This document shows, piece after piece, positions 14,261-61,426 of a stretch of DNA of 64,000 nt. Under the pieces are notes generated by a model. That model had not been told where the DNA came from and searched no databases. It saw nothing but the letters and a program-made list of their open reading frames with translations. Both the position numbers and the translations under genes were made by a program. Every line of letters starts with the position of its first letter. Position 1 is the stretch's first letter. The DNA is from Dipteris shenzhenensis (taxonomy: Eukaryota): NCBI GenBank assembly GCA_047967505.1, contig CM106538.1. One strand, 5' to 3'.

Positions 14261-14849
14261 AGCTCTAAATTTCTTTGAACTTTGCTCGTTTCGTCCTTTG
14301 AAACACAATAGAATACATTGACTAGATCATATCTATATTGCAAATATACAGTTTTATAAAATATCACATAATTGAAAGGCCAACTCACATTATTTACAAG
14401 GGTCCTCTTCTTTGAGTATTTCCTGCTAGACTGCTTTGAGGAGATCCACCACCTATATAAATCTTCCTCTCTCCAGCTATATTCAACTCCACTAAACTTT
14501 AGAGGCACTATCTCATGATGATGCTCATGGATGATGCCTTTAATATGCTGCTGTTCTTTCTTTTTATGCCGTAGATCTATAACAGTCTCTATTCCCTCGA
14601 ACCACCTTCGTACACGATGATAGTTTTCTAACAATAGAGAATGCTGGTCTTTAAAGCACTTTTCTAGGAGCTCTTTCCCATATAGCTTGTTCTTATCCCT
14701 ACAGATCATTTTGGGTGGTTTAAACACCTCATCATATGTAGGTGTAAAACTTGCCCCTAAGATCGGAGGAATAGAAACTTGAGATTTATCTTGCAAAGAG
14801 AGACGGTCCTTGTTCTCTTTGAAGGACACATCCTTTGATTCATCTCCCA

Positions 14850-19000: not shown

Positions 19001-19833
19001 ATTGGAGCATGTATGGAATCCTCTTTTTCTTGACATTTTCTATATCTCTTTGATTCAACCATTCCAAGCCTTGTCAACATAGTAGTTAATTGCTCCCAAC
19101 ATGTGGGAACAGTTATTCCATTTAGACTTCCATCCCATGTTTCTGGAAGTTGGACCAATAGTTTACTCAAACTTGATCTTTTTGCGCCTTCATGTGTTCT
19201 AGACCTAGGACCACCCATATCTCCAAATAGAATTTTAAGCATACTATCTTGAAACTCCACTAAAGCTTGATGTCCATCCCAAAGAGCTTGCAACTCAATC
19301 AATCTTTGTATGATTTTATCAGCGAGAGATAAATGGCTATCCTCTCCTAAAGCATCCATGTTATCCTCTTCATCATCCAACCTAGCGCCTTCATGCATAT
19401 CAGTAAATTCATCGTTCCCTTCCATCTGATGCATGGGCTCATTGTTCTCCTCTTCTTCAGGTCCACAAGAGCTGGAGTATGGAGCATGCAAACCAAGATT
19501 CTCTGCAATAGTTTCAAATCGCTCATCAACTTGCATATGCCTTGCATAAGTTGATGGAGCGACCAAGCGGCCACCATGGCAATAAGATTCACATCTACAC
19601 CATACCCGCCTCCGTCGATTAGATGATTCAATGAGTTCTTCATTCACTACAATATCATTGCCAATAGAGTTCTCCTCATTCACATTTCTCAAAATTGATG
19701 CGTGTAAGTTTCCAATGGAGTCTTGTTGCAAATGCACATAATACGTCCTCCGGCTCACATCTTGATAGCCAAGAGGCGAATGCCTGCACCTATAATTGCA
19801 TCTACATCTCCGTAGGCTATCATCTATTGCCAT
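16039..19833 (-). pseudogene. CACTA/EnSpm (Tnp2-like) transposase, nearly intact
   Basis: LLLHWDGFQ, FMKPLIDELESL, VTGDHPAQCKIG, YDCMHILALN, YKAEE, FWCYTYERMV. One in-frame TAG at 17376-17374. Intron donor at 18471; the expected acceptor before GDP reads CAT rather than CAG. Confidence 0.85.
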
Positions 19834-20615
19834 CTGGAATAAGGCACATGAAATCATAAATAAAACACCCTAGAGAACAAACACTTACATAAGCTCAACA
19901 AAGTCCATCACAAACATAGAGACATAGCATTTATAAACATGTATAAACACATTTAAAATAAACACACATAGTAGGGTCCTAAGTATGGGCAACTAGTGCC
20001 AGTCGTATAGACGGCCTCCCAACAAATATCATCAAAGTAGCCTCACCCATGGTAAAACCGTAGGTAAGCTGTTGTAGGCCATGCAAATGCACACCCTAGC
20101 AATGACTCCATGGATAAAGAAGGACTATACCTGTGAGATTTTGTCACTTCTGGTACTTAGCTCCCACACGTAGGACCATAGATACGTGTCTATCATTACA
20201 TAAAAATGAAACTTCCATATCATAAGCAAATAAAAGAAATATTGCCATACCATATAGACAAGGCATAAACCCACTGAACTAAAGAAGCACAAACAATGGC
20301 ATTCACATAGGCACAAACAATAACATAGACATATAGAAACACCAATACAAACATAGGCATAGACTATATAAACACCAATAGAAACGTATGCATAGACTAT
20401 AGCATAAAGCATAAAATTGCACTTAGAATTAGGCATATAGGCATTCACATAAGCATATAGACATATAGAAGCATAGACTAAAGAAGCATAGGCAAATAAG
20501 CATTCACATAAAGCATAGAAATAGGCATTCACATAGAAATGTAGCATAAATATCCAATTGCATAACATAAAGAGAAGGTGTGTGTCTACTACATTGTCTA
20601 ACATATTAAATCATA

Positions 20616-28822: not shown

Positions 28823-30579
28823 ATATACTTGTAGGCTCTCCTTTCAAGTTTGCACCACCACGAGAGAAGACAAAGAAAACAACGTTAGCTTTACTATTTT
28901 CAAGAGCGGAGCGGATCTATAGAATTGCGCCCACTGCTTGCAACAACAAATTGGTTTTGTGACAAAGAGGAATGAAGATAGGAGTAGCAAGGCTAGAAGA
29001 GTACTGAATCTTATAGGTAGCAGATGGAAAAGGAAAATCAGGCAGTTATTATGTAGAGGAAGTAAATGGCGAGTGGATGTTTGACGGTGATGTGTAGCAG
29101 TTTGATGTTTGCGAGCATGATCATCTTTGTTTTATGAAGTACATAGAAAGTTGGTAGTGTATATAACCATGTGATCATGTAAAAGCATGATCATTTGGGT
29201 ACAAATTTCATAATACTTATAACTACATGTTCGTGTAACTACATGTTCATGTGGGGGGAAGTTGGCACACTTTCTCTCCAAAAATATAAGACCAAGGAAT
29301 GTGCCGTTCCTTGGGATCTTGTAAATTGCATAATATATTATATAATGTGGAATTTGTCGTTGCATATGATCATGTATCCTGTATTTTGTAAGTCACATAA
29401 TGTATTCTGCGTATTGGATAATGTATCTTTTTTCAAAGATTATTGTTTTTTTAATTTTAATAAAGAATATCACAAGAAATAGTAACGGTACTTGTTTAAT
29501 GAACGTCGTTGTATGGAACAATGATTCCCAGTTACTTGCAATACATGCAATGTAAATACATACAACTGTTATGGAATTCAAAATTGCTAAGAAATATATG
29601 AAGATTATTACTTGAAAGAAATAGAAGTGTCCCTCTAGATGTCTATTACATAGAATTGTGTTTGTTTTGAAGAGTCATGTCTCATGGGAAATTTTCAATC
29701 AAAGGGCGCACACCCTTTTACATCCATCAAATTGACATCCTAGGATAGCTGCTAATGTTCACATGCAAAGAAGGGAGGAGGAGGCCAAACACTCCAAAGT
29801 CTCTGGACTATCACTCTTGAACTGAAAGCAAGTTTACACCTAGTGCATCGGATTATATCACATTATCCAATGAAATTTCAAATAATGAACCGCATTCCAT
29901 CATTTTACATATGTTCATAGCTCCACCCTACTTTTTTTATTGAAGCAATATTTGTTGCATATAGAATCAAGCTCTTTGTTGGCTGCATGTGAGGAGCGAG
30001 ATGCTATTGGTAACTTTCAAGTGGTGGTGTTAATACTCTAAAGTCTCAGGAAAGCTCAAAACTTAATAGTACAAGGAGGAGGTTGGGAGTGATCCGTGTG
30101 AGGAGGTGACCATGACTTGAATTAGAGTGGAGGCACTTGAATTAGAGTGGAGGTGGCCACTCGTTGAAGTAGGGTGACATGCTTGAATTAGGATGAAACC
30201 ACGGCTTGGATTTTGAATTGATCTCGCTATGCTTCCTGCCTAATGATAATATTGAAGACATGTGATCCCTTGGAGGTCCTCCTAATCTTTTTGATTCTAT
30301 AAGATGTGGGGTTTTATTCCATCATCGCTATGGCTTTTGTGTAGATCATGCATACCTATCATCGAGTCATGAAAGAAAATTTCTTGAAATTGGCTACTCT
30401 GATGGAGAAGGGCGAAGGTCACAGGTAAATCTACCCTACTTTACATAGAGTGATGAAAGATGGCAAAACGGGTCATCTTGAGTGGCTAACTATATTAGCT
30501 ACACTTGATGTACGGTTCTCAAAAAAATTTCAAATTTCTTGAAACACAATAGCATAGCGGATCGTGCACTACGAGGGTA

Positions 30580-31740
30580 GTAAAGTAATATAGTGGCCAT
30601 CGTGATGTGGGAAGACTATCCCACATGACTTCGTATTGCAAAATATGGGAGAAGGCAAGAAACACCCTCGGGGGGGTCACTAATCATATGTAACCCTATC
30701 ACGTGAGTTCAACAAAAGGATATTTTTTATTCCTAAAATTTACAGAAATAAATATACATAAGGGACAATTTTAAATAGTTTTGGGAAAAATTTACAGATT
30801 TGTATAGAAAAGGGGTACATTTTATTAATGAAAAAATTTACAGATAAGGGATTTTAAATATAGGCCTTGAACACACATGATATAGAGGGTTTATACATAG
30901 TGAAACCCCCGAGGAAACATCCTCATGGAATGTTCTCTCTGTAGAGCTATGCATGACAACTTGTAGAGTTGCTAATAAATTTGTTGCAAATGAGGGTTGG
31001 CTTTTTACCACCTTACATGTTGTACTAGCAGTATCCACATCGCATGGTTTTAAGTTGTTATGCACAACAATGGTGTACATGGAAGTTGGATACTTTAGAA
31101 AAGATCCCTATGAAGAGGTATGTGTATAGTCAAAATTTGAGTTTGATAATTATTATGCAAATGAAACATGTGTGCAGTATAACTTTATTTTTAGTAATTT
31201 TAATGAAAATGAGGTTCATCATGGATGTATCTTACATAGTTTAGTCCCTTTTTAATTTTGCAAGTGAATTGGTTGCTATTGTGTGCATTCAATCGAAAAG
31301 TATTCCAACCCATGGTGTACAATAAAAGTGAAGCAGACGAGGCGATGACTTGTGTCCACCAAACAAAAACTGGTTTAGAGAGTACCTATATGGGAAGGTA
31401 GTGCACTCAAAACTAGAGAGGAAAATTATTCGTGTGGTGTAGAGCATCAAGTGGCCTTAAGAAGGTTGGTTGGTAAAGATTAGTGTAGACATGCCTTGGA
31501 AATGTATGTATATTGCACTTCGTCTATGTATATTACACCTTACAAGTGTCAATTGTTTTGCAGATTCTTACTCCATACATATACGAGAGCAGGGGACATG
31601 ATAATAGATTCTTTTGTTGGGACCAAAAAACATGGCTAAGGGATACAAGGAGAGGGATATGCATTGCAAGGAGAGGGCTATGCATTGCATCTCAATGGAA
31701 ATGGATGACACTCTACTTGACATGTTTCTTAGGCCGTGTG
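30580..31740 (+). pseudogene. Beta-class amino-(N4C/N6A) DNA methyltransferase-like gene relic
   Basis: AIVMWEDYPT*L...(MITE removed)...SWNVLSVELCMTTCRVANKFVANEGWLF (motif IV-VI-like), then FLLHTYTRAGDMIIDSFVGT (motif X-I, 31565-31624) and, after a frameshift, NMAK...ERAMHCISMEMD (motif II). Confidence 0.62.
30667..30913 (+). mobile_element. MITE, CTCGGGGG-end family, 8-bp TSD
   Basis: TIR CTCGGGGGGGTCACTA / TAGTGAAACCCCCGAG; flanks GAAACACC / GAAACATC. Removing it restores a reading frame. Confidence 0.85.
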
Positions 31741-32759
31741 CTCAAGGCAGAGATGCAGAAAGAGAGGAGGATTGAATATATATGGTGGTTTTTCTGGTTT
31801 ATAAATAGTAAAAATAGAGGCAATAGATGGCTGAATGTATGGACATAAAGTCTCTTTCTTTTGCTTGGATGAGTTTTGAGATATAGTTCTATTTTATGGA
31901 AAAAGTTTGGAGCATTTTTATCTCCTCATATTCATAGATAGGACCATGATATCTTGGGAGGAACATTGTGTGATGTGTTATGGCTTGCTAGTTTATGAGC
32001 AATATCTATAGGCATTAGATAGTTGAATGTATGGGCATAAAGTGTCTTTCTATTGGATGGTTTTTTGTAAATGACACTTCTATTTTATGGAAGTTGCATA
32101 AGGTTGTAGAAGTGTCTTGAATTTGCATGAAATGCCAATCTAAAAAGTGGCAAATTTATGCTACTAGTGCAGTTCAAAATGTTGGTATAGGTCTAAATAA
32201 AACATTTGAATCTTTTGATACTTAAAAACTTATATTAGAATCCCCTTCAGTTTTCACACATAATCGACCAATTGTGGATGTTAATCTAAAAGTGGCAAAT
32301 ATACGAATTTTGGTACAAGGCTAAATAAAGCTTTTGAATTTTATGATACTCAAAAATATATTTGCCATTACTACTACCAAGCATGCTCTTCTGACTTGAC
32401 ACATAATCCAATTGATGGAGAGCATACAATTGCTCAACTTAGTCTATATGTGTGAAGTAGATGAATTACTATTGTCATGAGATAAATGGATATTGTAAAT
32501 AACTTTTGTGTGTGGTAATAGCTAGTAGTTGTAACTAGATGTAATGTTTTATGATGGAAAAACATTTGAACGCTTTCAATTTGTATTATAAATTGCTTCT
32601 GTGTGTAGTAATATTTTATAACAACCCCAGAATTGTACATAGATGTATATAACATTAACCAAATTGCCATAGAAAAAAACCTCAGCCGAATGGTGAAAAG
32701 CTTGCCTCAAAAAGCTCGCCAAATAGGCAGTCCCACCGATGCCCATACAAACAAAACAA

Positions 32760-33100
32760 GGGTTCTAGGGTTTAGGTTTTAGGGTTTTTGGGGGGGCTTG
32801 GGAGATTTTGGAGGGTTTGTGGGTGTTTGAAGGGATTTAGGGTGGATTTAGGCCCCAAGGTGTTCAGGGTTTAGGTAGGGTTTAGGAAATTTGGACGGGT
32901 TTAAGGGGTTTAGGGGTGGGGTAAGGGGGTTTGAGGGAATTTAGCGGGAGCTTAAGGGGGGTTGGGGACTGTCAAGTGATTTATGAGGGATTGAAGGGGG
33001 GTTTAGGGGGTTTTTGGGATTTAAGGGAAGTTTGGGGTTTAAGGGGGGTTTAGGGTTTAGGGAATTTGGACGGGGTTTAGGGTTTATGGGAGATTCGGGT
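32760..33100 (+). repeat. Degenerate TTTAGGG-like G-rich tract
   Basis: gggtttagg, tttagggtttaggg and variants over about 340 bp. Confidence 0.75.
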
Positions 33101-33439
33101 GTTTGACTTGATTGGGGGGTGATGGTTTGGGATGTGTTCAAGTGGAGAGGATGAGTAGTGAAATCTCATCGGATGGGGGCTTGGAGTGGCTTCGTGATAG
33201 ATTGCCTTGTCCTTCCACACATTGCAGGCAAGAGGTTCATCGTTAGCTTTGTATTGTCATGCACCATTTGTAGATGTATATAGAGGTGCCACCAAAAGAG
33301 AATATTGGTCTTCATGTTAGCATATATTGTGTGCATGTTGCACACAACATTGTGTCATTATACAGGATGAAAAGAGCAACAAGGGAGCATGTGCAGTAGC
33401 ACGACCACAATTGGAGCAAGATATACATCATTTGGAACA

Positions 33440-33800
33440 GCCACTTTGGCTTGCCATACCAAGATTCCAGCTCATCAAAAGCAACATCCTGACTCACCAT
33501 AGTCTTCTTGGTCGATGGGTTGTAGCATTTGTAACCCTTCCGGTTCTGTGCATAGCCAATAAACACACATCTTTCATCTTTGGGATCCAACTTCCGTCTC
33601 TTTTCATCTAGTATATGCTTATATGCCAAGCTACCAAACACTTTTAAATGACTAACATCAAGCTTCTATCGATCGATACAATTTCTCATATGGTGTGAGC
33701 ATATGAATGCCAACAATAGGAGTGTGATTCAGCACATACACTGCAGTTGCAAGTGCTTCTCCCCAATAATAATCAGGTATGTTCTTTTCATTCAACATTG
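33440..33800 (-). pseudogene. Ty1/copia integrase fragment
   Basis: SMLNEKNIPDYYWGEALATAVYVLN; FGSLAYKHILDEKRRKLDPKDERCVFIGY...GYKCYNP. Related to 53860-54220. Confidence 0.9.
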
Positions 33801-34879
33801 ATCTTGAGGATGATCCTCTAGAAAAGGATGAGGGTATGGCAAACATGATGGATTCTAGTTTTGGAGGCATGACACTACAAGACACGGGCCTCTTTTCGAT
33901 GATGCCTTCCGATGCTTCGCTGAGCCCGAGCACAAAGATCATCGGTATGGTTGGCGGGCGGGAAAGGTGTCGATGTTGATGTCAAAATAGCTGTGGATAT
34001 GATCATCTCAGTATATGTGTCAGTATAGGTCTCGGTATATACTAACCCCTATAGTGACATTTATACTGACTACCATATCGACTAACACCAACCCTTGCAC
34101 TGATGCTTTCACCGATGCATGAGTACATTTTTCCATATTGACGTTTTTACAGAACGTCATTTCGAAGGGTCTCAAAATAATTTTGGACCACAAGTTTGGT
34201 CATTTTAAAGATAAAAAATATAAGAGTATGAACACCAAATTTGAGATCGTATATTGATAGTGAGCTTAATTAACATACAAATTATTGTACAAAATGTCAC
34301 TATAAAAATGTGAGGGCCAAATTATACATAAGAAGTCTCGGTGATGTGAGAACTATGTGTTAGTGGCATTTACATCGAAGGCTTCATCTTGAACCAAGTC
34401 TTGCATGCCAAATATGCCTATCTGAAGTTTGACATACAATTTATCACGTACATCATCATCCCTTATTGTATGTCTACCTAAGACTTGATCCTCTAGTTCA
34501 TTGGCCTCTAGTTCTCCCTCTTCTTCCCCAAAGTCATTATCTCCACCTTCCTCCATTACAGTGTCATTATTGTCACCTTCTTTGTGCCCCATATCGTCAT
34601 CTTCATTCGCTTCCCTAGATCCATCGGCATCATTATTTGGATTTTTTGCCGGCATCTCCTTATTCACATCCCTATCTTCAAAAACATGTTTTCTTCGAGA
34701 AGCAACTTGGACCACGTATCACCAGCTTGGATCCAAAAAATCTGGATGAAATACCACCTACGTTGAAGATCCAAATTAGGTTCTAGTAATTATATTCATT
34801 TATGCTCAAGTATAGAAATATATGTATATGAATATCTACCAACATTTGTTTGAAAACGAAGATATTAGCTTTTAATTAA

Positions 34880-36899
34880 TTCGTTAGTGTGTACCTGTTC
34901 ACAATGCTTTGGAAGAACAAAGGTATCACTCTCATTGGTTTAGGCTCTAGTGGAGTCAATGCCAAAGAAACCACATTTGTCTCTCCTAACTATAGCATTG
35001 GGACCATTGTACATAGTTCTAAGCCATTTACATCAAGAATGAAAATACTAAAATTTTTAAAATCAACTTTGTAGATGTCACCTATGGTCCCACAATAATC
35101 TAGCTCTGTGAGGAGATAATATTGGTATCAGAAGCACTTGCTCGGCTATCTTGTACAAAGTTATCACAATTAATCACATGTTATTCTCCTTGAATCGATG
35201 TGTTCCACATGAAAATGCCATCCATGTGACCACAGTGCACTGTACTTTTTGTACTCCAAAAGAACATGACTAAAACAATGAGGATGCATTTTGTAATGAT
35301 TGTGATCATAAATAACTAAATTAAGTAGAAAGGTTAAAAACTTACATATGGCATACATCCAACTGCAAGCTCTTGATCGGTTATGTCCTCTCCATCATGT
35401 TCAGCTTCATGAAGTGCTTCTTGTATCTAATCATGGGACATGTGTTTGGGGAGAAGAGCAAGGTCCGATGGATATGGCACCTCCGCTTATGCATGACTCT
35501 AAATCTCACCCTCCCATTTATTCTTTTCACTTTGGTCTCTTCATATCTCTCCACCCATCATTGCATCTCAGGACTATTGAGGACACAAAACTTATTGAAT
35601 TTCTCTCTTTGCTCTTCGCTCATCTTTCTTTCAACCCCTTTACCTTGGGGAACCTCTGCAATGACACAATCATCATCCTTGATGTTCCAAGCATGAGGGA
35701 CATCAGGATCCATGGATGCAAGAAACTTTGTGATGCATACTTTGACTCTTGCACAAGCCATCCCTCCGCCATGCTTGATTTGGGTCTAGCTCTTTGCCTT
35801 ACAAATCCCTTTAAGGTTTTCATAAATCGTTCAACGAAATACATCCAACGACTATGAACGGTTCCTACAATGGCGACCTCATCAACTACATGTACTAGCA
35901 TGTGCACCTGAGTTGTCATAATGCTTGAGGGAAAGTGCTTCTCAAGGAGGCACATAGCTTCAATGGAGTCCACCTTAGCCCTCTTGATGCTCGATACATA
36001 AATCTCTTTTTGTGAGATCCACCTATTCCAATGCACTCGTAAGATTCAATATTTTATATCCTTCATTTAAAATTACATGATATATAACGAAGGTGATATG
36101 ATAGTAAGCATACCTGACAATGCTACTGATCATGTAGATAGCAGTCCTAACATCTTTTGATAAGCATCCTCTCACTATAATTGGGAGGATAAACTACCCA
36201 AGCAACAAAGGAGGGCCAACAATGTGTCACAATCATATAAGCTAATTACATGAAAGCATCAAAATCTTAGTTTTATATACTCTTCTTTCAAGCTAACATG
36301 TAGAATACCTGTAAGACCTTGTGCCAATCATGGGAATTGAGGCCACTAAGCTTATTGTCCCTTTTAAATGCTCCCCTCATGCAACGCACGTGTCTCATCT
36401 ATGTCTAAAAGGATGCAATATTTGCCTTGACCCTTGCCTCCTCTACTTTGGAAAGGATCCATGGTGCCTTTGGGAAAACAATTCGTGGAGGAAGCACGGG
36501 TTCTTGAACCACCCTCCTGAGTTGTATAACCATGCTCTTGAGTTCTACCCACATGCTCTTGGGGCCACAAGTGAGGCATCCTACCCAACTCGTGCAATTC
36601 TTCTCACACTCCCCTTGTGTCTTTGTCACCAACCAAGTGTGCCCAAATAGAAGCCCGCATATTCTTGAAGATATGCAAGGCATGGAAGAGGTATTGATTT
36701 GTAGCTCGCCCCAATATGGAAGCTCATTAAAGATTGACTTGCCAGAGTCCATAGTTGGAGGAGGCTCCTCACTATTATCTCTCCAATACCGAATCCGGTC
36801 ACTTGCCTTCCTACGGACCAATGGTGGATCAAGTTGACCTTCACATGTAGGATGATCAAGTGGAAGATATTGAGCATAAATTTCATAAACCATCTTCCT
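34880..36899 (-). pseudogene. Canonical plant CACTA Tnp2 transposase relic, 5'-truncated
   Basis: RKMVY...YLPLDHP, KSIFNELPYWGEL, MTTQVHMLVHVVDEV..VGTVHSRWMYFVERFMKTLKGFVRQRARP, YCGTIGDIYKVDF. Confidence 0.9.
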
Positions 36900-37229
36900 C
36901 ACGAGTTTTCCTTATCAACTTGATGAGTCTACAAAAAGATGGGTCCCAATTGATTATTTGAAGTACTTTTTCAATCAAGAACCTAGGTTCGTGAAGAGTT
37001 TAGATCGCTTTCGAGCCTAGCTCACACCCCTAGGGTCTAGGGAGGTGGACACTGATGACTTCCTACCATGTGGAATCATCAAAAACATAGGAAATAGGTT
37101 CCTATCCTAGGAAATGACCTTTATTTTCCTTCTCTAGGAGAGAAAAATGGAAGAGGAGGCCTCAACCTCAAGCCTTGGCTGTGCCCCTACCCTTTCCGAT
37201 CCTCTTATTTCTGTAGATGACATTTGGGG

Positions 37230-39875
37230 CTATCTTAGGACCCAATGCCTCCCCTGTCTAACTCTACGTTGCAACCAAAGCGCAATCCCTTGGCTCCCTG
37301 TTAAGCACTTCCAAACAGCACATCTCCTTGTCTTCTTGACATGTTGAATCGCTTTTCCGAGACTTGAGACCTCTACCTTATCGCGCTTGAGAGTCCTGGC
37401 CTCTAGACATCTATAAAACCAATCGAACATTTCGTGTAGTGCATTGCTTTGTGCAATACCACCCCCATGCCTTATATTCTTGAAGCATGCTGCCTTTGCT
37501 CTGTAGTGTGATTTCTCCATTTGTTGAGTATTCCAAATGGACAGAGGGCCCCATTGGTCCATAAACAATGGTGCATGTGCATAAAGAATATGCTGTAAAG
37601 AAAAACATTGTATTCAACACATAAATTGACTCAAGTTTAAAGCACAGAATTTCAACCTAAGGAGGATTACCATGTAATGTGTAATATGTGAATCCCCCCA
37701 TGCTTCTACCATCAATGATATGACTTCTCCCAATGCTGTCCTGAATCTCTCATAATAAAGCTCATCTGTTTGACCTTGTCTAAGAAACTTTATAAATGCA
37801 TCAAGCTTTGTCCACAGTTTTGCTCTCAAAGTAGCAATTCGTGGATGTGAAGCTTGATTTGTGGTGCACTCACACAAATCTTTCCAGTACTCCCAACCTA
37901 GGGTACTTTGAGCCATTGTATGTTTTTCTTTATCAGCATTGTGGTTGGACAAGAACCTCCTTGCCTTTCCTCCACCCATGGACACTTTAGCAGGAAGATT
38001 TTGTGTCTTTCTCGATTGTTTCTTTTGTTGTGGCCTCAAATTCCAAGGATAATTTAGATGGAGATAGAGTAACTTATCAAGTATACACAATTCAGCATGC
38101 AAAGTACACACGTGTACCCGCTCTAATGGAATTGGTAGAATGGGGTCCCACTTAGGATCCTTTTTGTGACAATCAGGGGCTGCACTTTGGTTGCAAGAAA
38201 GGATGCCATCTTCCCACTATAGGCTTCCCTTTTGCATCTTCTGAGAGTGGGTGAAATACAAGCATGTCCATTTTGCATCTGCACCTATATCACAACAATA
38301 CAAGCACTTGAGGGTCTTCAAATCACTAGCTAGATGCCATTCAACTTGAAACATTCCATGCCCATCCACAATTAATGTTTGCCCTACCTCTTGTCTTCAA
38401 ATAATCCACGAGATGCCAGTTCTCTCCAAAACCCACTTTAATGTCTCCTGGCACTCCTTTGGGGTCTCAAAGGTTGTAAGCCACCATATGTCCTTCTCAG
38501 ATTGGACTGAGAAACCCTGCTCAACTTCCTCATCCCCTTGAGCAAAACATAAGGCGTCATTCATGATACAAATGCTTACCCTCTCTAGCTTGTGCTCTTT
38601 TACCAACTGAGCTTCATCCATTTTTATAACAAATACTAGCTTGCCATCTGTACAATGAAAGAGAAATTCAGTAAGGACATAGAAATCAAAAGAAATAAAG
38701 TTGAATCTGAAGAGGGAATTTCTCTTACCTTCTTCTCTCATCCCATAGAATTAGACCATGGCTATCTACAAATTCTCTACATCCACGTAAACATTATTGA
38801 AAGCATTCATCTCAAACGTTTGGATGCCAGATTTCTTTTTACTCTTCCAAGTCATTGTGCCACTTACACAATGGTATCCTCCAAGATTTTTAAAAACAGA
38901 GTTGTAAGCTTCACGAATTACACCAACAGTATTACAAGCTCTAAGCACCTCCTTTGCTTCTAGCAACTTGTTTACGTAGCCCTTTTTGTCTAGGTTCCTT
39001 CAACACTTCCATGACATCACTTGGCTTTATTAAACTTTTTAGAACATATGAAGAATCACTATCATCCATTTCCATTGTTCCCATCACATCCTCCATGAAA
39101 TTCCTAAAGTAGAGTACAAATGAGTCTTAGTGGAAAGAATGCAACACCACAAATATTTTGGGGTAAGAAATTTCATTGAAAATTTGGGGAACTAACCTTG
39201 CAGCCTGTATTCTCGTCTTTCGGGCACCACTAATGGTTGACAATGCATCCATAGATTGCAATTGTCTTTTCCTCTCCTTTAGTCCCAAAGGTGTTCCCTT
39301 CAACTTTTGTACTTGTTCTATCGACTTCTCTTGTTCCTTCTCCATAGCACGTTGTACTTGGCCATAGATAGACCTTTCCAAATCTTGTTTTCAGCAAGCT
39401 TCTGGATTGATTCTTCCAATTTATGTCGCTCCAAGTCTAGCGCATGTGCTTTGTCACTGAGTTCTTTGTTTTGAAATTGGAGATCTTGCATACTATTATG
39501 CATTGCCACAATAGTTATATTACCCAAATGTGCAAGTTCTTTTGCTTGGGCTCTCTGCACCTCGCTTGCTTGCATAGCCAATATCTGAGAATGGTTCAAT
39601 TGATTGCAATAACCGAGCAATCCAGCATGTCCCTTACCAACAAACCGAACAACATCATGCACTGTCTGAAAAGGAGGACTCTTTTGGGTAGCAGGGTCTA
39701 AAGGATACAAGATTCCATCCACCCAAACATCAAGATGCTTCTTGCCTTGCAATCGAAGACTATAGAGCACACTTTGAGGAGTTCTACTATATCCCAAAGA
39801 GCGTGTGCTAGCATATTCTAACTCTAGTTGTAGGTTCACATGGTACTTGTTGGATATATCCTCAAATGGTGCCAT
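37230..39875 (-). pseudogene. Transib/Chapaev/RAG1-core-like DDE transposase relic (spliced)
   Basis: VFVIKMDE (D at 38618), WHLASDLKTLKCLY..AKWTCLYF (D at 38324), PILPIPLERVHVCTLHAELCILDKLL, KVSMGGGKARRFL, and across a GT-AG intron HITHYM/HILYAHAPLFMDQWGPLSIWNTQQMEKSH (E at 37517). Confidence 0.7.
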
Positions 39876-39949
39876 GAGTACTCAAAGAGAGGTATCAGTG
39901 ATGCTGGTTAAAATGTAGGGGAGAGCTGGAAAAGATGGAGCCGTGAGAG

Positions 39950-40375
39950 GGAGAAAGTAGCAAGGAAGAGGGAGGAGGAGAAGAAGCAAGAGAAAGAGGA
40001 GGAGAAGAGTAGGGCGACATGTGTAGAAGGGAGGGAAGAAGCTACTATAGAAGGGAGGAGAAGGGGAGAGATGCTACAGGAGGGAGGAGGAGGGGAGAGA
40101 TTCTGTAGGAGGGAGAAGTAGAGGAGAGGGATCCTGGGCAGCTAGAGAAGGAGGGGAGAGGGAGGGAGGAGGAGCCAAAAGGAGAAGGAGGAGCCAGAAG
40201 GAGGAGGAGGAGGGGAGAGGGAGGAGGGAGGAGGAGGAGCAAGATGGAGGAGGGGAGAGGAGGAGGGAGGGGGAGGGAGGGAGAGGGAGAGGGAGGAGAA
40301 GGAGGGAGGGAGGGAGGGAGGGAGGGAGAGAAAGGGAGGGAGGGAGAGTGAGAGAGAGGGAGGAGGGAGGGAGAT
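39950..40375 (+). repeat. Long polypurine (GGA/GGGA) low-complexity tract
   Basis: Almost pure A/G on the plus strand, between two divergent gene relics. Confidence 0.9.
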
Positions 40376-41107
40376 TCGAAATTTGAAATTCAAATTTCGA
40401 AAAGTGGCCCCCTCCCCTCATTGATGAGGGGAGAGGTGGGCTCAAATGTGGGCTTAACCCACCTAGGTTGGGCTGGTTGGCCCTCTTTGGGACCCTTCAA
40501 GCCCCTTGCATTAGCCCACTAAGCATTCCCTAATTCATTCCTTATGAGGCCCTTTTGAGACCCCAATTTTCCCCTAATGTATTTTTATTTGTTCGTGTAT
40601 GTGTTATATGCAGGTCCACATGATGCATGTAATGGTGTATGTTTGCCAAGGTAAGGAGCATAGGGCCACCCCCTTGGATGACTTCGTGGAGGATGGGGTC
40701 GGCACCATAGAATGGGTGTGCGATGCAAATGATATCCCCGTGCGAGTTATTGCTTAGCAATTGTGTATTAGCTTTGGCAAAGTTTGAAATACAAGCTGGG
40801 CTTGCATTGATTTTTAGTGTTATGGTAGGTGGCATGCAACACAAACAATTGTTTTGGATGAGGTTACTGTAGGACTACTCAGAAGATGGAGACACACTCC
40901 TTGATTGCAATGTAGGGTGCAGAGACTTAGTCGAACCTGCAGTGCAGAGACTTAGCCCACAAAGGGAGGGGAACCATGGTTTCTAAGAGGCAGAGTATGG
41001 ATTTGAGTTTGACATCTCCATGAATGTTTGTTGAAATTCAACTACATACAATTTGGTTTTTCCTTTATACAATATTGCACTTTTGTAATCTCATCGAGCT
41101 TGAACAG

Positions 41108-41520
41108 TTGCCTCCACCTTCGAGAGTTGGTGATTTTTTATTTGAATGGGGGCTTACTTCATAGGAGGCTAAAGACTCAGGGTACCTTGTCGGCCAAGGC
41201 ATTAGAGCTAGAGAACCACTTGGCCTTGTTAAGAGCTAGTGGCCGAGTTCCTCCATGAGGTTTGATGTGGCTATTTGGAGCTCAGTACAACATGACAATC
41301 TACAGAGATTATTGGTCCTGCTAAAGGGAGAATGTCACCAAGCGACTGGCTATCACATCCTTCTTTGTGTTTGAGTATAGCTAGGATAGATGTATGACAC
41401 AGGCCACATATGTAGGAAGAGGACAGGGGCATGCGAATCCTAAGTTTGGGAAGCACTTGGCCGACATCAATTGGCAACACTTTGACCCTTCGGCAATGTT
41501 GCTTGTGGATGATAAGGATG
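41108..41520 (+). pseudogene. FCP1/NIF-type (HAD family) phosphatase-like relic
   Basis: LVIFYLNGGLLHR (cf. LxLDLNGxLxxR), RFDVAIWSS...NL, FFVFEYS*DRC, HFDPSAMLLVDD in the canonical order, with frameshifts. Confidence 0.65.
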
Positions 41521-41989
41521 TTTTTATCAAAGCTATGCTTATATATATATTAATATAAAATCTTGGCAAAAGTTCTCAAGCTCATTTTTCAAGTTTCACA
41601 ATATTGGTAGAATGTAGTACTCTTTTATATATTTTCTTTTGAATTTTGAATGAAAAAGTGTAAATCCTGGCGAAACTTTAAAATTTCTTGCATAAAAGTT
41701 TCAAATCTTGGCGAATATTTCAAACATTTATTTTTATTAAGGCATACAAACTTTTGATGCCAATATAAAAGTTTAGCCTCTCAATGAAACTAACTTGAAA
41801 AAATCATCTATGGTGGATGACAATGTGAAAAAATAAGCATTATGAGAGGAGGAGCAATGCTTCTAGACATCTATTTTGCCTATGCCTCTTTGCATGACAT
41901 CTCCTCTAGCAATGATTTTTATCACCAATTGTTGTGTTTGCAGTTCTATGTCTTATTTCTAGTCGGGGATAGGCCAAGTGGGGCATATT

Positions 41990-42246
41990 CTAGGGGGATG
42001 CACTACTAATAAACCCTACATATCACGTGCATTCAAGGGGTATTTTTAAAATTCCTCAACTAAAATTTCCCCCCTAATAAAACCACCCCTCTTTATTTAT
42101 GGACTATGGAATTTTTAAAAATTTTGGATTAAAAAATCTCTCCTATAATTGTAATCTTGTTAAATTTTTCCTAATTGTCGAGTTAGAATACCCCTCCTCT
42201 TGAATGCACGTGGTACACTAAATTATTTTGAGGTAAACCCCTCGAG
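41990..42246 (-). mobile_element. MITE, CTAGGGGG/CTCGAGGG ends, perfect 8-bp TSD
   Basis: GGCATATT at 41982-41989 and 42247-42254; homologous to 27661-27899. Confidence 0.85.
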
Positions 42247-42509
42247 GGCATATTATGGAGAAGGATAAGACTTCACAAGAGGATAATTCTGAAGTGAAAA
42301 CTATGGACAACTCTACAAATTCATTCAAACTAAAGGTGGAAAGAACTCTCCAAAAGCAATAATCTCTCAACTACATTGCTAGATTGATCATAAATTTGTC
42401 TCTTTCTCCTATCGTTCATAAATATGGTTTGGTGGATAAGTTATGTTCTTATATGGTTTGGCATATAAGTCAGTCCTAAACCAAGGAAAATGTATTTCCT
42501 TCACTCTAA

Positions 42510-43210
42510 AATTAACCTAAAATTTGAACTAGACTAATTTAACTACTTTAAAACACATGAATTTCAACTACTGGGCTGGTCATTAATTATTTTTGTTCTG
42601 AAATATATTTTTGTTTTTAATTTCTATAAGTAGATGCTAACAAAAGTCAGACTAGGACAATCACAATAACATCAATTAAATTATATTTGCTACTATTAAA
42701 ACCACCTGGCAAGTTTTGAATTATCACAATGCAAGTCATCCCATGTATGACCCAAAACAACCTAGAAACTAAACTATTAAACTAATTTAAGTACTTGGAA
42801 ACACAAAAATTTCAACTATTGGGTTGGTTATCAATTATTTCGATTGCCACATGCTAGAATTTAACAGGTGGTACATGCAGACTTGTAATAATCATGGAGC
42901 TGAGAGCTCAAAATTTAAACTAATCCAATTTGACTACTCGTAAACTAAACTAGTTTAACTACTTGGAAACACAACACCACTAGGTGGTCATCAATTACCA
43001 CCATGTTAGCATTCAATAGGCACAAAACATGGAGACTTATAATATTGATGGAGTAGAGAGCTTAAAAATAAACTAAACTAATTTAACTACTCTTAAACTA
43101 AACCAATTAAACTACTTGGAAAAACAACACCATTGGATTGGTCATCAATTGCCAGCATGCTAGCATTCAATAGGCTAAACATAAGGACTTATATTAATGA
43201 TGGAGTGGAG
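42510..43210. repeat. Degenerate tandem repeats (AACTAAACTAATTTAACTACTTGGAAACAC...GGTCATCAATT)
   Basis: About four related blocks near 42525, 42765, 42940 and 43070. Confidence 0.7.
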
Positions 43211-43951
43211 AGAAAAATGTTGGTGTGGTAAGGATTAAGTGGCAGACAGAGACCTTGTGAAAATGAAGTGCCACGTTGGAAAATTTTCTTATGATGCCCC
43301 TTATGAAGTAACCAGGCAGCTAATTGGCTATTAATTTGATCAAAATACCTTAACTAGAAGGATGGCAAACTCATCGAGGTGGATTAGTGGGTATTAATTA
43401 TTGAAGTGCCATGTAGGCTCATCGACTTCACATTTCTCTACCCTTGTCTCCCACCCTCATCTCCACTACCTTTGTCGACTTCATACTAATCTACCCTCAT
43501 CAAATTCACATAACTCCACCCTTGTCTCTTGCTCCATTGTCTCCAACCTTCATCTCCACCTATGTTTTATTAATTTGAGTGTTTTTTTTAATTTGAAAAA
43601 ATTGCTAAAATACGCATTTTTTACGATTTAAAACGTTTCAATCTTTTTTTGCTATTTTATTCGTACACATAGGTTATTCATACAAATAACTCAGTTTATT
43701 CATACGAATAAACATAGTATAAACTTGCAACCACCATTGCTATTTTTGGCATTCAAATAAATAGATCCACCTGCCTTCCTTGTCACCTCAGCCACTTGCT
43801 TGCCAGCCCTGCTCCCTCTTACTTGCCTACCTACTACCTCCAGCTTGCTTCCATACCTACCACCTCTCTTCATAGGTATCTTACTGCACCCTTGCTTGTG
43901 TTGCAGTCTTTCATTAGTATTAATGTTTCTTTTGCTTTGTTTTGTTTAGGA

Positions 43952-44641
43952 CTAGCACTCATCTCTCTTAGGAGAGTTGTGTCTTGCAATCTTTTTAAAT
44001 TATTCAATATTTATTTTATATTGTATTTAAGTGTGTAGACAAGCTGGCACTTGTCTCTCTTGCGAGAGTTGTGTGTTGCATTCTGTTTTTGTTATGTGTT
44101 GCAATTTCAATTATAATATAAATAATTATTTTTTACTTGAGGCTGGCACTCATCTCTCTTAAGAGAGTTGTGTGTTGTAGTCTCAGTTTGTATAAAAATG
44201 TTTGTTTGTAGGGACTCTTGGGTTGGCACTCATCTCTCTTAAGAGAGTTGTGTGTTGCAGTCCAAGCTTAGTGATGTTTTCATAGATGCTTATTCTAGCA
44301 CTCATCTCTCCCTTGAGAGTTGTATGTTACAGTCTAAGTTTAGAGATGTTTTTAAGCACTTAGTCTGGCACTCAATTGTCCCTTGATAGTTGTGTGTTAC
44401 AGTCTAAGTTAGATATCATGCGACGTGCTCTTAGACACTTAGTCTGGCACTCAACTATCCTTTGATAGTTGTGTGTTGCAGTCTAAGTTAGATATCCTAC
44501 GATGTGCTCTTAGACACTTAGTCTAGCACTCAACTATCCCTTGATAGTTGTGTGTTGCAATCTAAGTTAAATATCATGTGATCTGCACTTAGACACTTAG
44601 TCTGGCACTCAACTATCCCTTGATAGTTGTGTGTTGTAGTT
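43952..44641 (+). repeat. Array of nine ~40-bp hairpin repeats with 30-59-bp spacers
   Basis: Units CT(G/A)GCACTCA-stem-loop-TTGTGTGTTGCAGTC start at 43952, 44044, 44143, 44223, 44295, 44365, 44444, 44523 and 44602. Confidence 0.92.
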
Positions 44642-44869
44642 GAAGCCTAGTGTTAGATGGTAAAGTCCACGATTAGGCTATACCTAGGTCATTTTTTGTG
44701 CAGGTTACACGCTTATTTTTTGTGTTTTGATTTTTTGTAGTCTGTTGAGAGGTTATATCTAGGTAATTTCTTAGAATGCTTGCATTGTTAATTGTTATGT
44801 CTTAATGAGTTTCTTATTGCACCTAGCACTGAATTCTTTTTTGAATTCTTTGTTGCAACTTACTGCATA

Positions 44870-45940
44870 TGAGATGGCTTGCGCAGGTGAGAAGAGGAAG
44901 TGTCAGCAACTTGATCTCACTAAGATTTAGAGGAAGGTGCTGAAAATTGAGAATGTAAACTTCTTAATGAATGTCAATCATGATGCGACAATTTTTTTTA
45001 AAAGATTGTTTCTATAGGTTTAGTATTGTTTAATTGTTTAATATTGTTTGTGGTTACAAATTAATTCTATCTTGTTGTCATTTTTTAGGTTAAGTATGAG
45101 CATGGAGGGAGAGAACTTAGAGAACATTCTCCCACACGATCCTTCCCCAACTAGAGCAACTTCCACTTCAAGAGGGCCCACAATGTGCTTTTCTACCTCA
45201 AGAAGCTAATTAAGCAGACCAGCTAAGTCACGCTGAGGCTCAAGCTATCTTATAGGCACAAAGAGAGATGTTGGGAAAACTTGAGGGGCTAGGTATTTTT
45301 GTTACTGGTTTAGTGGATGATGATACCATGCAAGGCGACCCGCTCTCTCTTCGACAAGTACAGAGACTATGTCCATCAAAGTTCGTAAGAAACACCTTGT
45401 TTCTTCGTTCAAGAAATGCTAGGAATAAATATGCATAGCCCAAGTTGTCAGACTTGCAGCACAAAAACCTAGCCCACATCCTTCTCCAGCGATTCATATA
45501 GGTGGAAGAGAGCATCCCTAACAAGCAGCAAATACCCATGTATTTCATTCAACAGGTGTATGTCTACAATGTCTTGCATCGACGTGTGGATTGCAATGAC
45601 AAGCATCACTTGTCAAGAATAGGAAAGGGATGTCCTGCAGAGTGCAAGTGAGCAAGGATAGAGAACAGAGAGCCCGTGTCTTAGAGACCTCATGTGCTAA
45701 CTCCCCAGGCACACAGTGATCTTGTTGACTTGGCCACATCTGCCATACCTCTCTGTCAACAAGGTGTTACTCTGCTGAGGAGTTACAAGAGCGCGTTGCA
45801 TCACAAGCCAAAGGGATCGAGGACTTGCAAGCATGTGTATAGACGTTCAAGACTAATCTTGCACGCTACAGACATACCTTTGGAGATTTGGATGCAACTG
45901 AGGGTACCGACATTTTTTATTTGGAGGACCTCACTAATAT
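44870..45940 (+). pseudogene. Degraded ORF of unknown function, convergent with the hAT transposase
   Basis: Acceptor ttttttag near 45089, then a long frame with scattered stops (AQREMLGKLEGLGIFVTGLVDD...IPMYFIQQVYVYNVLHRRVD). No domain recognised. Confidence 0.4.
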
Positions 45941-46126
45941 AGATTTGTAGGGTACAAGACCAAGCACTCAGGGAACAGTAGATGTGGATCCTATTGCATA
46001 ATTATGTACATTGTAAACTTCATATATAGCTTTGTAATACTCTTCTTCAAATATAATGATCTGGGTTAAGTGCATTTGTTTCATTGTACAATTTTATCAT
46101 CCTCCAACTTTTTATGCAATGATGGT

Positions 46127-46300
46127 TCGAGTGATATAAGTGATTTAAGTGGTTCAAGTGGACTAAGTGATATAAGCGATTTAAGTGATTTAAGCAACTT
46201 AAGTGACTTAAGTGGACTACGTGATTTAAGTGGACTAAGTGATTTAAGTGATTTAAGTGAACTAAGTGGCATAAGTGATTTAAGTGGACTCAGTGGATTA
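46127..46300. repeat. 9-bp minisatellite (AAGTGATTT / AAGTGGACT)
   Basis: About 19 degenerate units directly visible. Confidence 0.93.
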
Positions 46301-46725
46301 GGTCGACTTGTAAAGTTAATGCAGAAATATTGAAATATATCGATGTGAATTAGTGCACATGATAGCTAGATCAACCCTTGAGACTTGAAAATATAAACTT
46401 AGATTTTGCATAATTGATTATTCTTTCCAACTTTCCGATGTTGCCTTGAAAGTATTTGCAAATCACAAGGTTGGCTCTAGCTATTATGTATACCAAAATC
46501 ATCCACAATCTCGATAACTACAACACAACATTGCTTGTAGCCCACAAGGTTCTAGCTTTCAAGTACAAAAGGAGACGAGATGGATACATCGCTTGACATA
46601 TTCTCCCATCCATCTCCTCGCATACAACATTATACCCGATATAATTTAAGCTTCATCCACTGCTTCTATCACCTATCATATTCTTCTATCACTCTATATT
46701 GTATTCAACATAAGTACAATATCGT

Positions 46726-48540
46726 CTACCCTTTGACTTCACTATTGTCACTGAGTAGCTCAAGCTCATCTTCGTCTTCACTGAATGCACCCTCAGCCAC
46801 TAATTCTATAGTCAATCGTTGTCCAGCAATTCTCATTACAGCGGCTTCACTTGCTGCTTTAGCCATCGCAACATTGAATCCTTTCAACAATCGTAGATTT
46901 CCAAAGCAAAATACCAAATCTGCAGCTCTTCATGGCTTTAAGCGATTGCATCTCTTAGAATGAATAAAATCATATGCACTCCAATTTCGCTCACATGCAC
47001 CCAATGATGCAGCAACAGAGAGCACATGAGTTGCAACATGTTGCAACTCCAATGTCTCTCCACCATATTCCTTCCACCAAGTAGGTGACATCTTCTAATA
47101 CACTTTACCCATAACAAAGGCATCAGTGTTGACCATCCTTAACATTGTTACAAATGGCTCTACACCTTCTTTTATTCTTTCGACATTTTTTCAAAATAGA
47201 GATGATTGTACAAGATGCACACATTTAGAGCCTGGTATTGCATACTGCATCTTTTTCTCAAGCCAATTCACCCATCATCTATCAGCAATAGTCTCGACTA
47301 AAGCTTGATGCACTTCCAACAATCTAGCAAGAACTAGAAAAGAAGTGCCAAATCTAGTTTGACAAAATTGCATGAGTTGCTTCACAAAGTGCTCTCTAAA
47401 TACTACATGCAAGTATTGATGACTCTTTATAAAACTCACTACGACATTAGCATCTTGTAGTATTGATTGCACAAATGGGAATTGTCCAATACCCTTCAAC
47501 AATAAATTGAGAGTATGAGCACCACATGGCACCCATGTCAAAGTGGGATACTTTGCCATGACATCTCACCTGTGGTCTTGTAATTCGATGCATTATTTGT
47601 TACTAATGCAGTAACATTTTCACTGCCACTAACTTTATGAATTGTTCTTTCATATATTTTTACAATATATGTTGAAGTTTTTTCCTTTAGAGACATATCA
47701 ATACTCTCCAAAAACATAGTTCCCTTGGGAGTAATGCACATTACATTTATCAAGGGCCTAGCCTTCTTGCTAGTCCATCCATCAAAAGCAAGAGTGCATC
47801 CATATGTAGGAATAAAATCCAATATCTTTTTTTTCAAGAAATTTGCCACAGTTTGTTTGACTCTATCAAGATGATCTGTACGCATTTTATTATAATCCAG
47901 CAAATAAATCCTGGTTTAGCACATGATTTCAAGGCATTATGAAATGTCTCATCTCTCATGACATTGAATGGTATATCATTTTTGACAAATGCTTCATGAT
48001 TTCAAGGCATTACGAAATGTCTCCTCTCTCATGACATTGAATGGTATACCATTTTTAACAAATGCTTCGGTCCATCTTAAGTGCTCTTCATGCACTTGTT
48101 TGCTGAAGAAATCCATCCTCCATAGAAGATTATTCTCCCTTTTTTCTCTTCTTTACCTAACAGGCATTAGTCACATCAAAACTTACATGCAACCCGCTTG
48201 CTGGCAAATCTACATCACCTTCATGTACGGATACACTCCTTGCATTTATTGATGCTTCTCCTTCGACTGTCTCATCAACCTCAGCACTCACATCTTGTTG
48301 ATTTGGACAATTTCTTATCAAGGTCGGATTAACCACTTACTTCACTTTCTCTAAATACAATTTGCATAACAGAAGAACATCAGACGGCAGGCATGTGTAA
48401 GCTCCAACATCACTACCTATTGCTTGATGTGAGTAGAACTGCCTATGAACTTGTGCCCACAATATCTACACTCTAAGAAAGAGATCGATGCATGTACTTT
48501 TTGTATCTCCATCACATATGACCAAATCTTGCCATCCACC
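46726..48540 (-). pseudogene. hAT transposase (DUF659-type with dimerisation domain), frameshifted
   Basis: GCTLAFDGWTSKKARPLINVM, VTNNASNY, WVPCGAHTLNLLLKGI, TRFGTSFLVLARLL, CERNWSAYDFIHSKR...LVFCFGNLRLL. Confidence 0.92.
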
Positions 48541-60800: not shown

Positions 60801-61426
60801 ACGATGACACGGCTATAAAATCAGATGAGGAGCTCCAAAATTGGTGGAAAGAGATCAAGGAAGTTGGGCATGGAGATCACAAGGATGCAAGTTGGTGGGT
60901 GGCCATGGACAAAGTGGAAGAATTGGAAGAAGTACTATCAACAGTGATATGGTTAGCCTCAGGACATCACGCAGCTGTAAACTTTGGGCAATACGCTTAT
61001 GCAGGTTTCATGCCAAATGCTCCAACTATTAGCCATAAACTCATTCCAGAGATAGGAAGCCAAGAGTATATGGAGATGTCCAAAGATCCAGAGAAATATT
61101 TTATGACCTGTTTGGCAACCAAAGGGGAGGCTATCTTAATAATGGCAGTAGGGGAGGTATTGTCTCAACACTTGGCGGGTGAGGAGTACATAGGGCAGAG
61201 AGAAGACCCCAAGTGGACTAGCAATGAGAAGGTGTTGGCTGCTTTTCAGGACTTTGGGAGGAAGGTAGAAATGGCTGAGGCTAAGATGGTGGCAAGAAAT
61301 GAGGTGCAGGACTCCCTCAAGCTTGCCCACCGTGTTGGTCCCGCTTTAGTACCCTATACCCTCCTCTGTCCCTCCTCTAGTCAGGGCCACACACTTAGAG
61401 GTGTCCCCAACAGTATCTCCATCTGA
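57849..61426 (+). CDS. LOX: Lipoxygenase, complete 9-exon gene (predicted 13S-LOX)
   Basis: Exons 57849-57981, 58105-58400, 58510-58750, 58824-59108, 59210-59295, 59400-59507, 59597-59898, 60092-60355, 60664-61426. PLAT domain, [52 protein letters not shown]. Start codon is the best guess. Confidence 0.95.

Follow-up and report, generated by a model that had tools for sequence, protein, structure and literature searches.

A dead transposase gene of a probable RAG1/Transib-like family in a fern-like plant genome

The ancestry of RAG1 is a long-standing question, and the sampled diversity of its relatives is mostly animal. Here we describe a stretch of 64,000 nucleotides from Dipteris shenzhenensis (contig CM106538.1), referred to below as the window, in which the minus strand from 39874 to 37230 probably holds the decayed transposase gene of a DNA transposon of the cut-and-paste type, a member of a RAG1/Transib-like family. 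The closest described systems fall within the CACTA-Mirage-Chapaev-Transib (CMCT) clade, for which 5'-CA..TG-3' termini and target-site duplications of 2 to 5 bp have been reported (Kojima 2025).

Within this broad group, DUF1280 corresponds to Chapaev, described from animals, and has been grouped with RAG1, while Transposase_21 (CACTA) has been grouped with DUF1258 (Mirage) (Majorek 2014). By homology searching, plants have been reported to encode 39 Transib-like proteins, with Juglans, Capsicum, Hordeum, and Silene among the hosts (Tao et al. 2022). Moreover, a previously undescribed cut-and-paste superfamily of the CMCT clade, Lanisha, was reported from the moss Ceratodon purpureus (Carey 2021) and has been characterized as "showing similarity to EnSpm" (Kojima 2025). 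An earlier note, made from the letters of the window, had called the RAG1/Transib/Chapaev clade one described mainly from animals. In view of the plant Transib-like proteins and the moss Lanisha, that description is dated. Both Transib-like genes of plants and a CMCT lineage hosted by a plant have been published before, and the gene in the window adds a member. Our literature search found no paper on a RAG1/Transib-like family in ferns.

The gene in the window

The peptide strings quoted in the earlier note are all present on the minus strand and belong to one multi-exon gene with GT-AG introns. VFVIKMDEAQ lies in the minus-strand frame 38397..38750 and LASDLKTLKCLYCCDIGADAKWTCLYF in the frame 38217..38396, while VCTLHAELCILDKLL, SMGGGKARRFL, and HITHYM are all in the frame 37614..38216 and HILYAHAPLFMDQWGPLSIWNTQQMEKSH is in the frame 37230..37613. 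The parts of the gene are the following.

37230..39874, minus strand: whole dead gene, from start codon to terminal stop, at least five exons; tblastn of intact homologues covers 39848-37194
39318..39874, minus strand: exon 1, with the conserved N-terminal domain (LRLQGKKHLDVWVDGILYP...FVGKGHAGLLGY) and then a coiled-coil stretch; frame change near 39390-39340
39104..39196, minus strand: intron 1, 93 nt, GT-AG, read from the sequence; the adjoining exons align to homologues
38729..39103, minus strand: exon preceding the catalytic core, with a frame change, a deletion of ~31 residues, and two premature stops
38648..38728, minus strand: intron 2, 81 nt, GT-AG; the spliced product reads MREE-D-GKLVF, as in homologues
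37671..38647, minus strand: core exon, with Asp 1 (VIKMDE), Asp 2 (ASDLK), CLYF, VHVCTLH, GGGKARRFL, and HITHYM
37593..37670, minus strand: intron 3, 78 nt, GT-AG, read from the sequence; splits the HxxxxH zinc motif (HITHYM / HILYAH)
37230..37592, minus strand: last exon, with HILYAH, the catalytic Glu 20 residues on (QQMEKSH), RHGGG, the C-terminal tail, and the terminal stop

All three introns have lengths that are multiples of three. The exon structure is corroborated by intact relatives from metagenomes, one of which is the 843-residue open reading frame (ORF) of locus L006. This ORF aligns to the window over 38975-37383 (E value of 2e-108) and, in its N-terminal part, over 39848-39393 (E value of 2e-23). 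The N-terminal exon of the window gene aligns to the N termini of L006, L004, L005, and L014, and its C-terminal tail aligns to L027, L007, and P0054. The match is far above what chance would give.

The window copy has been damaged in several ways. It contains four premature stops (38766-38768, 38751-38753, 38397-38399, and 38217-38219), two frame changes (near 39390-39340 and near 38985-38965), and, when compared with all intact relatives, two internal deletions (loss of ~31 residues following FKNL and of ~25 residues following RPQQ). Also, its CxxC motif reads CLYF, and the second Cys, a zinc ligand, has thus been replaced. Because of these stops, frame changes, deletions, and the lost ligand, the copy is incapable of transposition; being dead, it has no functional weight of its own. 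A CT/GA-rich low-complexity tract of 500 bp (window 39900-40400) lies directly upstream of its start codon.

The family and its predicted fold

In a Pfam scan, no model reached its cut-off for any exon of the window gene. Word-indexed searches found P0001 (38% identity, 9.7e-35) and P0186 (44% identity, 2.1e-27), and P0186 reads through the same intron after HYM as the window gene does. When 1.84 billion representative sequences were searched exhaustively with HMMER for relatives of P0001, 300 proteins were returned at an E value of ≤1e-3, with 134 at ≤1e-10 and 26 at ≤1e-30. These relatives are mostly fragments, and the named ones are all annotated as "hypothetical protein." One 90%-identity cluster includes EukProt transcriptome entries from the dinoflagellate Prorocentrum and the prasinophyte Pyramimonas, while the 18 members of a second are spread over separate contigs that measure up to 657 kb. 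Among JGI and ENA metagenome contigs, 30 loci encode relatives, 17 of them in a single assembly; frames of 700 to 845 residues are open at some loci, and others are broken. This is a eukaryotic family without a Pfam model, and its hosts include land plants, green algae, and dinoflagellates, in addition to the sources of many metagenome contigs.

Alignments of the family reveal a common plan that begins with a conserved N-terminal domain, which exon 1 of the window gene also encodes, and continues with a coiled coil. Downstream of these are LDE, QSE, VEWHLAGDLKTLKC, CxxC, IPLxRVHxCTLHA, GGxKARxFL, and WG..xITHYMHILxxHxP, and then, after ~15 residues, W, xQxMEKSH, and RHGGG. An insertion at the codon of intron 3 is found in P0186, L006, L027, and others as well. 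The motif is uninterrupted in L002 and L007, and the family is therefore polymorphic for the intron that splits HxxxxH.

A link to RAG1 comes from structural modeling of the family member P0130. An AlphaFold2 model built with a 106-sequence family alignment had a mean predicted local distance difference test score (pLDDT) of 80.1 and a predicted template modeling score of 0.77. Among the matches listed by Foldseek against the PDB, all down to rank 49 (E value of ≤1e-3) were RAG1, amphioxus BbRAGL, or HzTransib. The best had an E value of 2.7e-12, HzTransib followed at 5.7e-8, and the first match from any other family was Hermes at 1.7e-3. VIA-align gave the same picture. With the RAG1 core (4wwx_B), the Z score was 20.6 over 447 residues at a root-mean-square deviation (rmsd) of 4.3, placing model residues 45-558 on RAG1 460-1008; HzTransib (6pqx_A) reached a Z score of 20.0 over 424 residues, and BbRAGL reached 18.4. 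Scores for other families were 10.5 for the P element, 9.8 for ISCth4, and 8.3 for Hermes. An exhaustive comparison with 48,161 representative chains, executed without the Foldseek prefilter, yielded the same order; only eight chains had Z scores of ≥8, and the top six were RAG1, RAGL, or Transib. As modeled, then, P0130 corresponds along its full length, with 424 to 449 residues aligned, to the modules of the RAG1 core and HzTransib, namely the dimerization/DNA-binding domain (DDBD), pre-RNase H, RNase H, ZnC2, ZnH2, and the C-terminal domain (CTD). The structural check proposed in the earlier note, for which the best hits turned out to be RAG1, BbRAGL, and HzTransib rather than hAT, P, or MULE transposases, has thus come out in favor of the proposed clade for this member.

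The positions of the catalytic residues in the P0130 model are in keeping with this correspondence. D160 lies in strand 1 (152-163), D250 sits just past strand 4 (241-249), and E507 is in a helix (504-521), which in the model is the canonical Asp/Asp/Glu (DDE) arrangement of an RNase H fold. In alignment A2, counting only those sequences that cover the given column, Asp 1 is conserved in 37/41, Asp 2 in 52/70, and Glu in 7/9, while the two Cys residues are kept in 55/65 and 54/67. In the zinc module of the family, CxxC comes ~20 residues behind Asp 2, and HxxxxH precedes the catalytic Glu by 20 residues. A hallmark of the CMCT clade (Kojima 2025), CxxC plus HxxxxH ahead of Glu, is accordingly present in the family, and its counterparts in the window copy are CLYF and HYM|HILYAH. 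From secondary structure, spacing, and conservation, we infer that the two Asp residues and CxxC are equivalent to D600, D708, C727, and C730 of RAG1. In a subgroup made up of P0130, P0155, and P0126, both Cys and both His residues are gone together, while all three acidic residues of the active site persist and the frames are still open over a long stretch; across the family, the four zinc ligands come or go as one set.

Sequence searches provide a second line of evidence. When P0054, a 321-residue protein that comprises an uninterrupted C-terminal half, was compared with the PDB by phmmer, all 15 matches were to RAG1 (E values of 0.0024 to 0.014). In the alignment of its segment EVTHYIHILYAHCPWFVDKWGSLGIWNTQGMEKSH, the two His residues match H937 and H942, and the Glu matches E962 (numbering of full-length 9jpu_A), and the counterpart of the last exon of the window gene aligned to RAG1 931-985. 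The Pfam RAG1 model (PF12940) touched the same stretch of P0054 with an E value of 0.0038 and 15.8 bits. Taken together with the two Asp residues on strand 1 and after strand 4, this alignment is in keeping with the correspondence of D/D/E and the two His residues to RAG1 that the earlier note proposed. A language-model comparison in the ESM-Atlas placed P0109 nearest to named clusters of RAG1 (0.94 to 0.95) and DUF1280/Chapaev (0.94), with 8 of its 10 best matches sharing a family or clan. For the L006 protein, the nearest DUF1280 cluster scored 0.89 and RAG1 scored 0.85, and scores of <0.9 are to be read as leads only.

Profile comparisons help to place the family within the CMCT clade. Pfam scans found no Transposase_21, DUF4216, or DUF4218 match in the family sequences, and hhalign detected no relation (probability of 0.13%) between the family profile A4 and A5, the profile of a Tnp2-type family represented elsewhere in the window (16042-19869). 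Because there is no Transposase_21 or DUF4218 match and because this hhalign comparison was null, the family is placed on the RAG1/Transib/Chapaev side of the clade and not on the CACTA side. DUF1280 (PF06918) matched none of ~31 family sequences at E values of ≤0.1 to 1. With respect to clade, fold, and motifs, the label "RAG1/Transib/Chapaev-like relic" that the earlier note attached to the gene is supported, as evidenced by the fold of a member and by the motifs, and none of the outcomes that the note had named as refuting it was encountered.

In its complete set of modules, the family matches the RAG1 core and Transib, with an RNase H-fold DDE center that is interrupted by a zinc module. 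By analogy with the RAG1 and HzTransib complexes, an active member would bind its own terminal inverted repeats as a dimer, nick at the ends, make hairpins on the flanking DNA, and integrate with a short target-site duplication.

Contrary evidence, mobility, and surroundings

Several observations weigh against assigning the window gene to a RAG1/Transib-like transposon family. The fold was modeled for P0130 and not for the broken window copy; P0130 belongs to the subgroup that has lost the four zinc ligands; and its identity to the aligned exon pieces of the window gene is 22 to 37%, with 18 to 19% for two of four pieces. RAG1 structures had, moreover, already been seen by AlphaFold. A control model of the CACTA-type family in the window (16042-19869) also had RAG1 as its nearest solved transposase, with a Z score of 7.3 over 259 residues at an rmsd of 10 (12 of 50 rows). 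For RAG1 to be the nearest transposase of this control would fit the idea of a CMCT clade, and because the control model is poor (pLDDT of 53.4), the contrast between Z scores of 20 and 7 is only suggestive. In addition, the non-Transib lineage ESTA matches RAG1 in HHpred too (Kojima 2025), and a best match to RAG1 therefore does not by itself make a protein a Transib. At the sequence level, the Pfam RAG1 hit is below the gathering score (15.8 versus 25 bits) and was obtained for 1 of ~31 family sequences. Sequence searches of the PDB found RAG1 with one of five family queries, and none was found with P0001, profile A1, the L007 ORF, or profile A4. Similarity to RAG1 at this level is thus thin, being marginal and rare, and no family search returned a sequence-level match to HzTransib.

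Evidence for transposon ends bears on the same question. An inverted-repeat search of 30000-46000 and of the six longest metagenome loci returned only pairs at chance level or of low complexity, a blastn comparison of 34000-43000 with the whole window brought up no second copy, and all-against-all blastn of the metagenome loci found no pair with common flanks. Common ends could not be defined in these loci because the contigs are too short and too diverged. The earlier note had likewise reported no second end, target-site duplication, or RAG2-like gene, and we found none in the window either.

Signs of mobility come from elsewhere. Seventeen diverged loci, some with stops, occur in one assembly; the 18-member cluster is spread over different large contigs; and the window copy sits among other transposon relics. 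As terminal inverted repeats, a target-site duplication, and a second copy were all looked for in vain in the window and in the short metagenome contigs, we infer mobility of the family indirectly, from multi-copy decay, the multi-contig cluster, and the transposon-rich setting.

Two features border the gene on its downstream side.

36900..36911, plus strand: CACGAGTTTTCC, which encodes the first residues (GKLV) of the neighboring Tnp2-type frame; no support as a transposon end
35620..36911, minus strand: neighbor, outside the element; a 5'-truncated, frameshifted CACTA/Tnp2 relic (Pfam DUF4218, 2.5e-23)

The proposal that the gene's element ends in CACGAG at 36900 found no support. Matches to CACGAGTTTTCC with up to three mismatches numbered 31, against 40 expected by chance, and neither an inverted partner upstream of the gene nor a target-site duplication nor a second copy in the window was found. 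The related statement that the Tnp2 frame breaks exactly at 36900 is correct to the extent that a minus-strand frame (36405..36911) begins there; the start of this frame simply follows a TAA stop. The N-terminal half of the CACTA relic was not found in 40400-47300, within 7 kb upstream, and the tblastn matches of Tnp2-like proteins from ferns do not extend to the relic at 34-37 kb. An insertion followed by a deletion would be the simplest guess for how the dead gene came to lie beside it.

The window holds other transposon remains. A Tnp2/CACTA-type frame of 1,276 codons with only two in-frame stops lies on the minus strand at 16042-19869, with more pieces at 14362-14754 and 12115-12318. It matches Pfam Transposase_21 at 1.2e-5, its closest named relatives are hypothetical proteins of the fern Adiantum nelumboides (42 to 66% identity), and the consensus of its lineage reads MHILSLN where MHxEKN is usual. 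A tandem array of ~79-bp units at 43940-44650, each with the short palindrome CACTCATCTCTCTTAAGAGAGTTGTGTG, resembles the subterminal repeat arrays of CACTA-type elements. A hAT transposase relic on the minus strand (46933-47915) has matches to DUF659 (4e-24) and to the hAT dimerization domain (2.4e-7).

Away from these transposons, ORFs whose translations start identically recur ~55 kb apart (8455-9133 and 63426-63999), each downstream of lipoxygenase-like pieces (1-565 and 58456-61423), and the lipoxygenase locus looks tandemly duplicated. The gap between lipoxygenase pieces and ORF is 7.9 kb for the first copy versus 2 kb for the other, with retrotransposon-like ORFs (3788-7771) in between.

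In the metagenomes, a second gene lies directly downstream of the transposase gene, in convergent orientation, at 9 of the 30 loci, all from one assembly (L004, L006, L011, L012, L023, L025, L026, L027, and L028; for example, L026:3467-5347, minus strand). This partner gene encodes ~400 to 630 residues, and its copies are 23 to 81% identical and have in common the motif C-x-x-H-x-x-x-C and a block of conserved residues at the C terminus. The gene had no Pfam match (six ORFs scanned), no sequence match in the PDB, and no homologue in the window.

Alternative readings and known systems

Part of what remains to be weighed is the name of the family. It may be the superfamily Lanisha, whose proposal is reportedly to be credited to Maumus et al. 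in Repbase Reports in 2020, and the gene in the window would then be nothing more unusual than a degenerate copy of Lanisha. This reading would change the name and not the mechanism, and we consider it a real possibility, if not the one that we would back. The setting suits it, since the relatives of the neighboring transposon are fern proteins, which points to a non-seed-plant-like environment, and Lanisha was an undescribed superfamily when it was reported from a moss (Carey 2021). However, Lanisha is said to resemble EnSpm (Kojima 2025), whereas the family in question has neither profile similarity to the Tnp2-type family nor a Transposase_21 match. More tentatively, and with doubt on our part, the family might be a distinct, ancient lineage of the RAG1/Transib fold, separate from Transib, Chapaev, and Lanisha, that carries introns, inhabits land plants, green algae, and dinoflagellates, and in one sub-lineage moves as a two-gene unit with the convergent partner. 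If so, RAG-type two-component transposition would have a plant/algal parallel. A Chapaev-type (DUF1280) assignment in place of a Transib/RAG1-type one is unlikely. It draws on the ESM-Atlas, in which the cluster nearest to L006 carries DUF1280 in 51% of its members (0.89; 190 of 256 features in common), a Mucoromycota DUF1280 cluster scores 0.86 for the same protein, and a DUF1280 cluster reaches 0.94 for P0109, and it agrees with the grouping of DUF1280/Chapaev with RAG1 (Majorek 2014). Yet scores of <0.9 are no more than leads, RAG1 clusters outrank DUF1280 for P0109, and ~31 family sequences are without a DUF1280 match.

Other readings concern the status of the gene rather than its name. 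That it is the pseudogene of a domesticated, transposase-derived host gene seems to us quite improbable. GT-AG introns are conserved, one of them at the same codon in many relatives; terminal repeats were not found in window 30000-46000 or the six longest loci; and P0130, P0155, and P0126 keep long open frames without any of the four zinc ligands, all of which count in its favor. Against this are the numerous copies within a single assembly, diverged and in part broken, the 18-member cluster on separate contigs, the retention of DDE in most members, the lack of the intron in some, and the transposon-rich stretch in which the window gene sits. Still further from probable is that the gene belongs, as a passenger or second ORF, to the CACTA element next to it. 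This idea is suggested by its position, since it shares the strand of the Tnp2/DUF4218 relic and lies 320 bp upstream of it. That relic lacks its N-terminal half, which does not resume upstream, and in nine metagenome loci a different, convergent partner gene is present instead. Also, no Pfam family was detected in 12 metagenome ORFs (five family proteins and seven neighboring ORFs), and hhalign was null against the window's other Tnp2-type family (that of 16042-19869, not the adjacent DUF4218 relic). A decayed transposase gene of a RAG1/Transib-like family is thus the reading that we prefer.

Occurring in algae as well as in a fern-like plant genome, a family that Pfam misses and that has the complete RAG1/Transib architecture broadens the material available for studying the evolution of zinc-containing DDE cores. 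Its intact members could be compared biochemically in, for instance, how they form hairpins and recognize ends. For annotation, the family gives a name to plant repeats of a kind that routine scans for protein domains have left as "hypothetical."

Compared with known systems, the family shares the broad CMCT clade with CACTA/EnSpm elements, which also occur in the window. It differs from them in having no Pfam or profile-profile similarity, and the Tnp2-type control, a low-confidence model, matches RAG1 only weakly. Lanisha, compared here by description only, is likewise a plant-hosted CMCT lineage with C(2)C and H(3-4)H motifs and differs in its stated resemblance to EnSpm. With Chapaev, the likeness lies in DUF1280 clusters being the nearest or near-nearest language-model neighbors, and the difference lies in the lack of a DUF1280 profile match.

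Transib, a single-protein cut-and-paste enzyme of the same clade, differs in that no Transib-type ends or 5-bp target-site duplication were found for the window copy; in fold, however, the family matches DNA-bound HzTransib (6pqn, 6pqx) as strongly as RAG1 (Z score of 20.0 over 424 residues). Transposons with RAG1L and RAG2L differ from the window locus, where no RAG2-like (Kelch propeller) gene was found, while the convergent layout of the metagenome partner gene echoes the RAG1L-RAG2L pair. From RAG1 itself the family is set apart by a structure-based identity of 13 to 14%, introns, a different N-terminal domain, and plant and algal hosts. Nevertheless, the family model matches RAG1 and BbRAGL (4wwx, 6dbo, 6b40) from the dimerization/DNA-binding domain to the C-terminal domain. 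As in RAG1, its DDE residues are placed on the first strand, just past the fourth, and in a helix near the C terminus, CxxC follows Asp 2 by ~20 residues, and the gap of 20 residues from HxxxxH to Glu is identical to that between H942 and E962.

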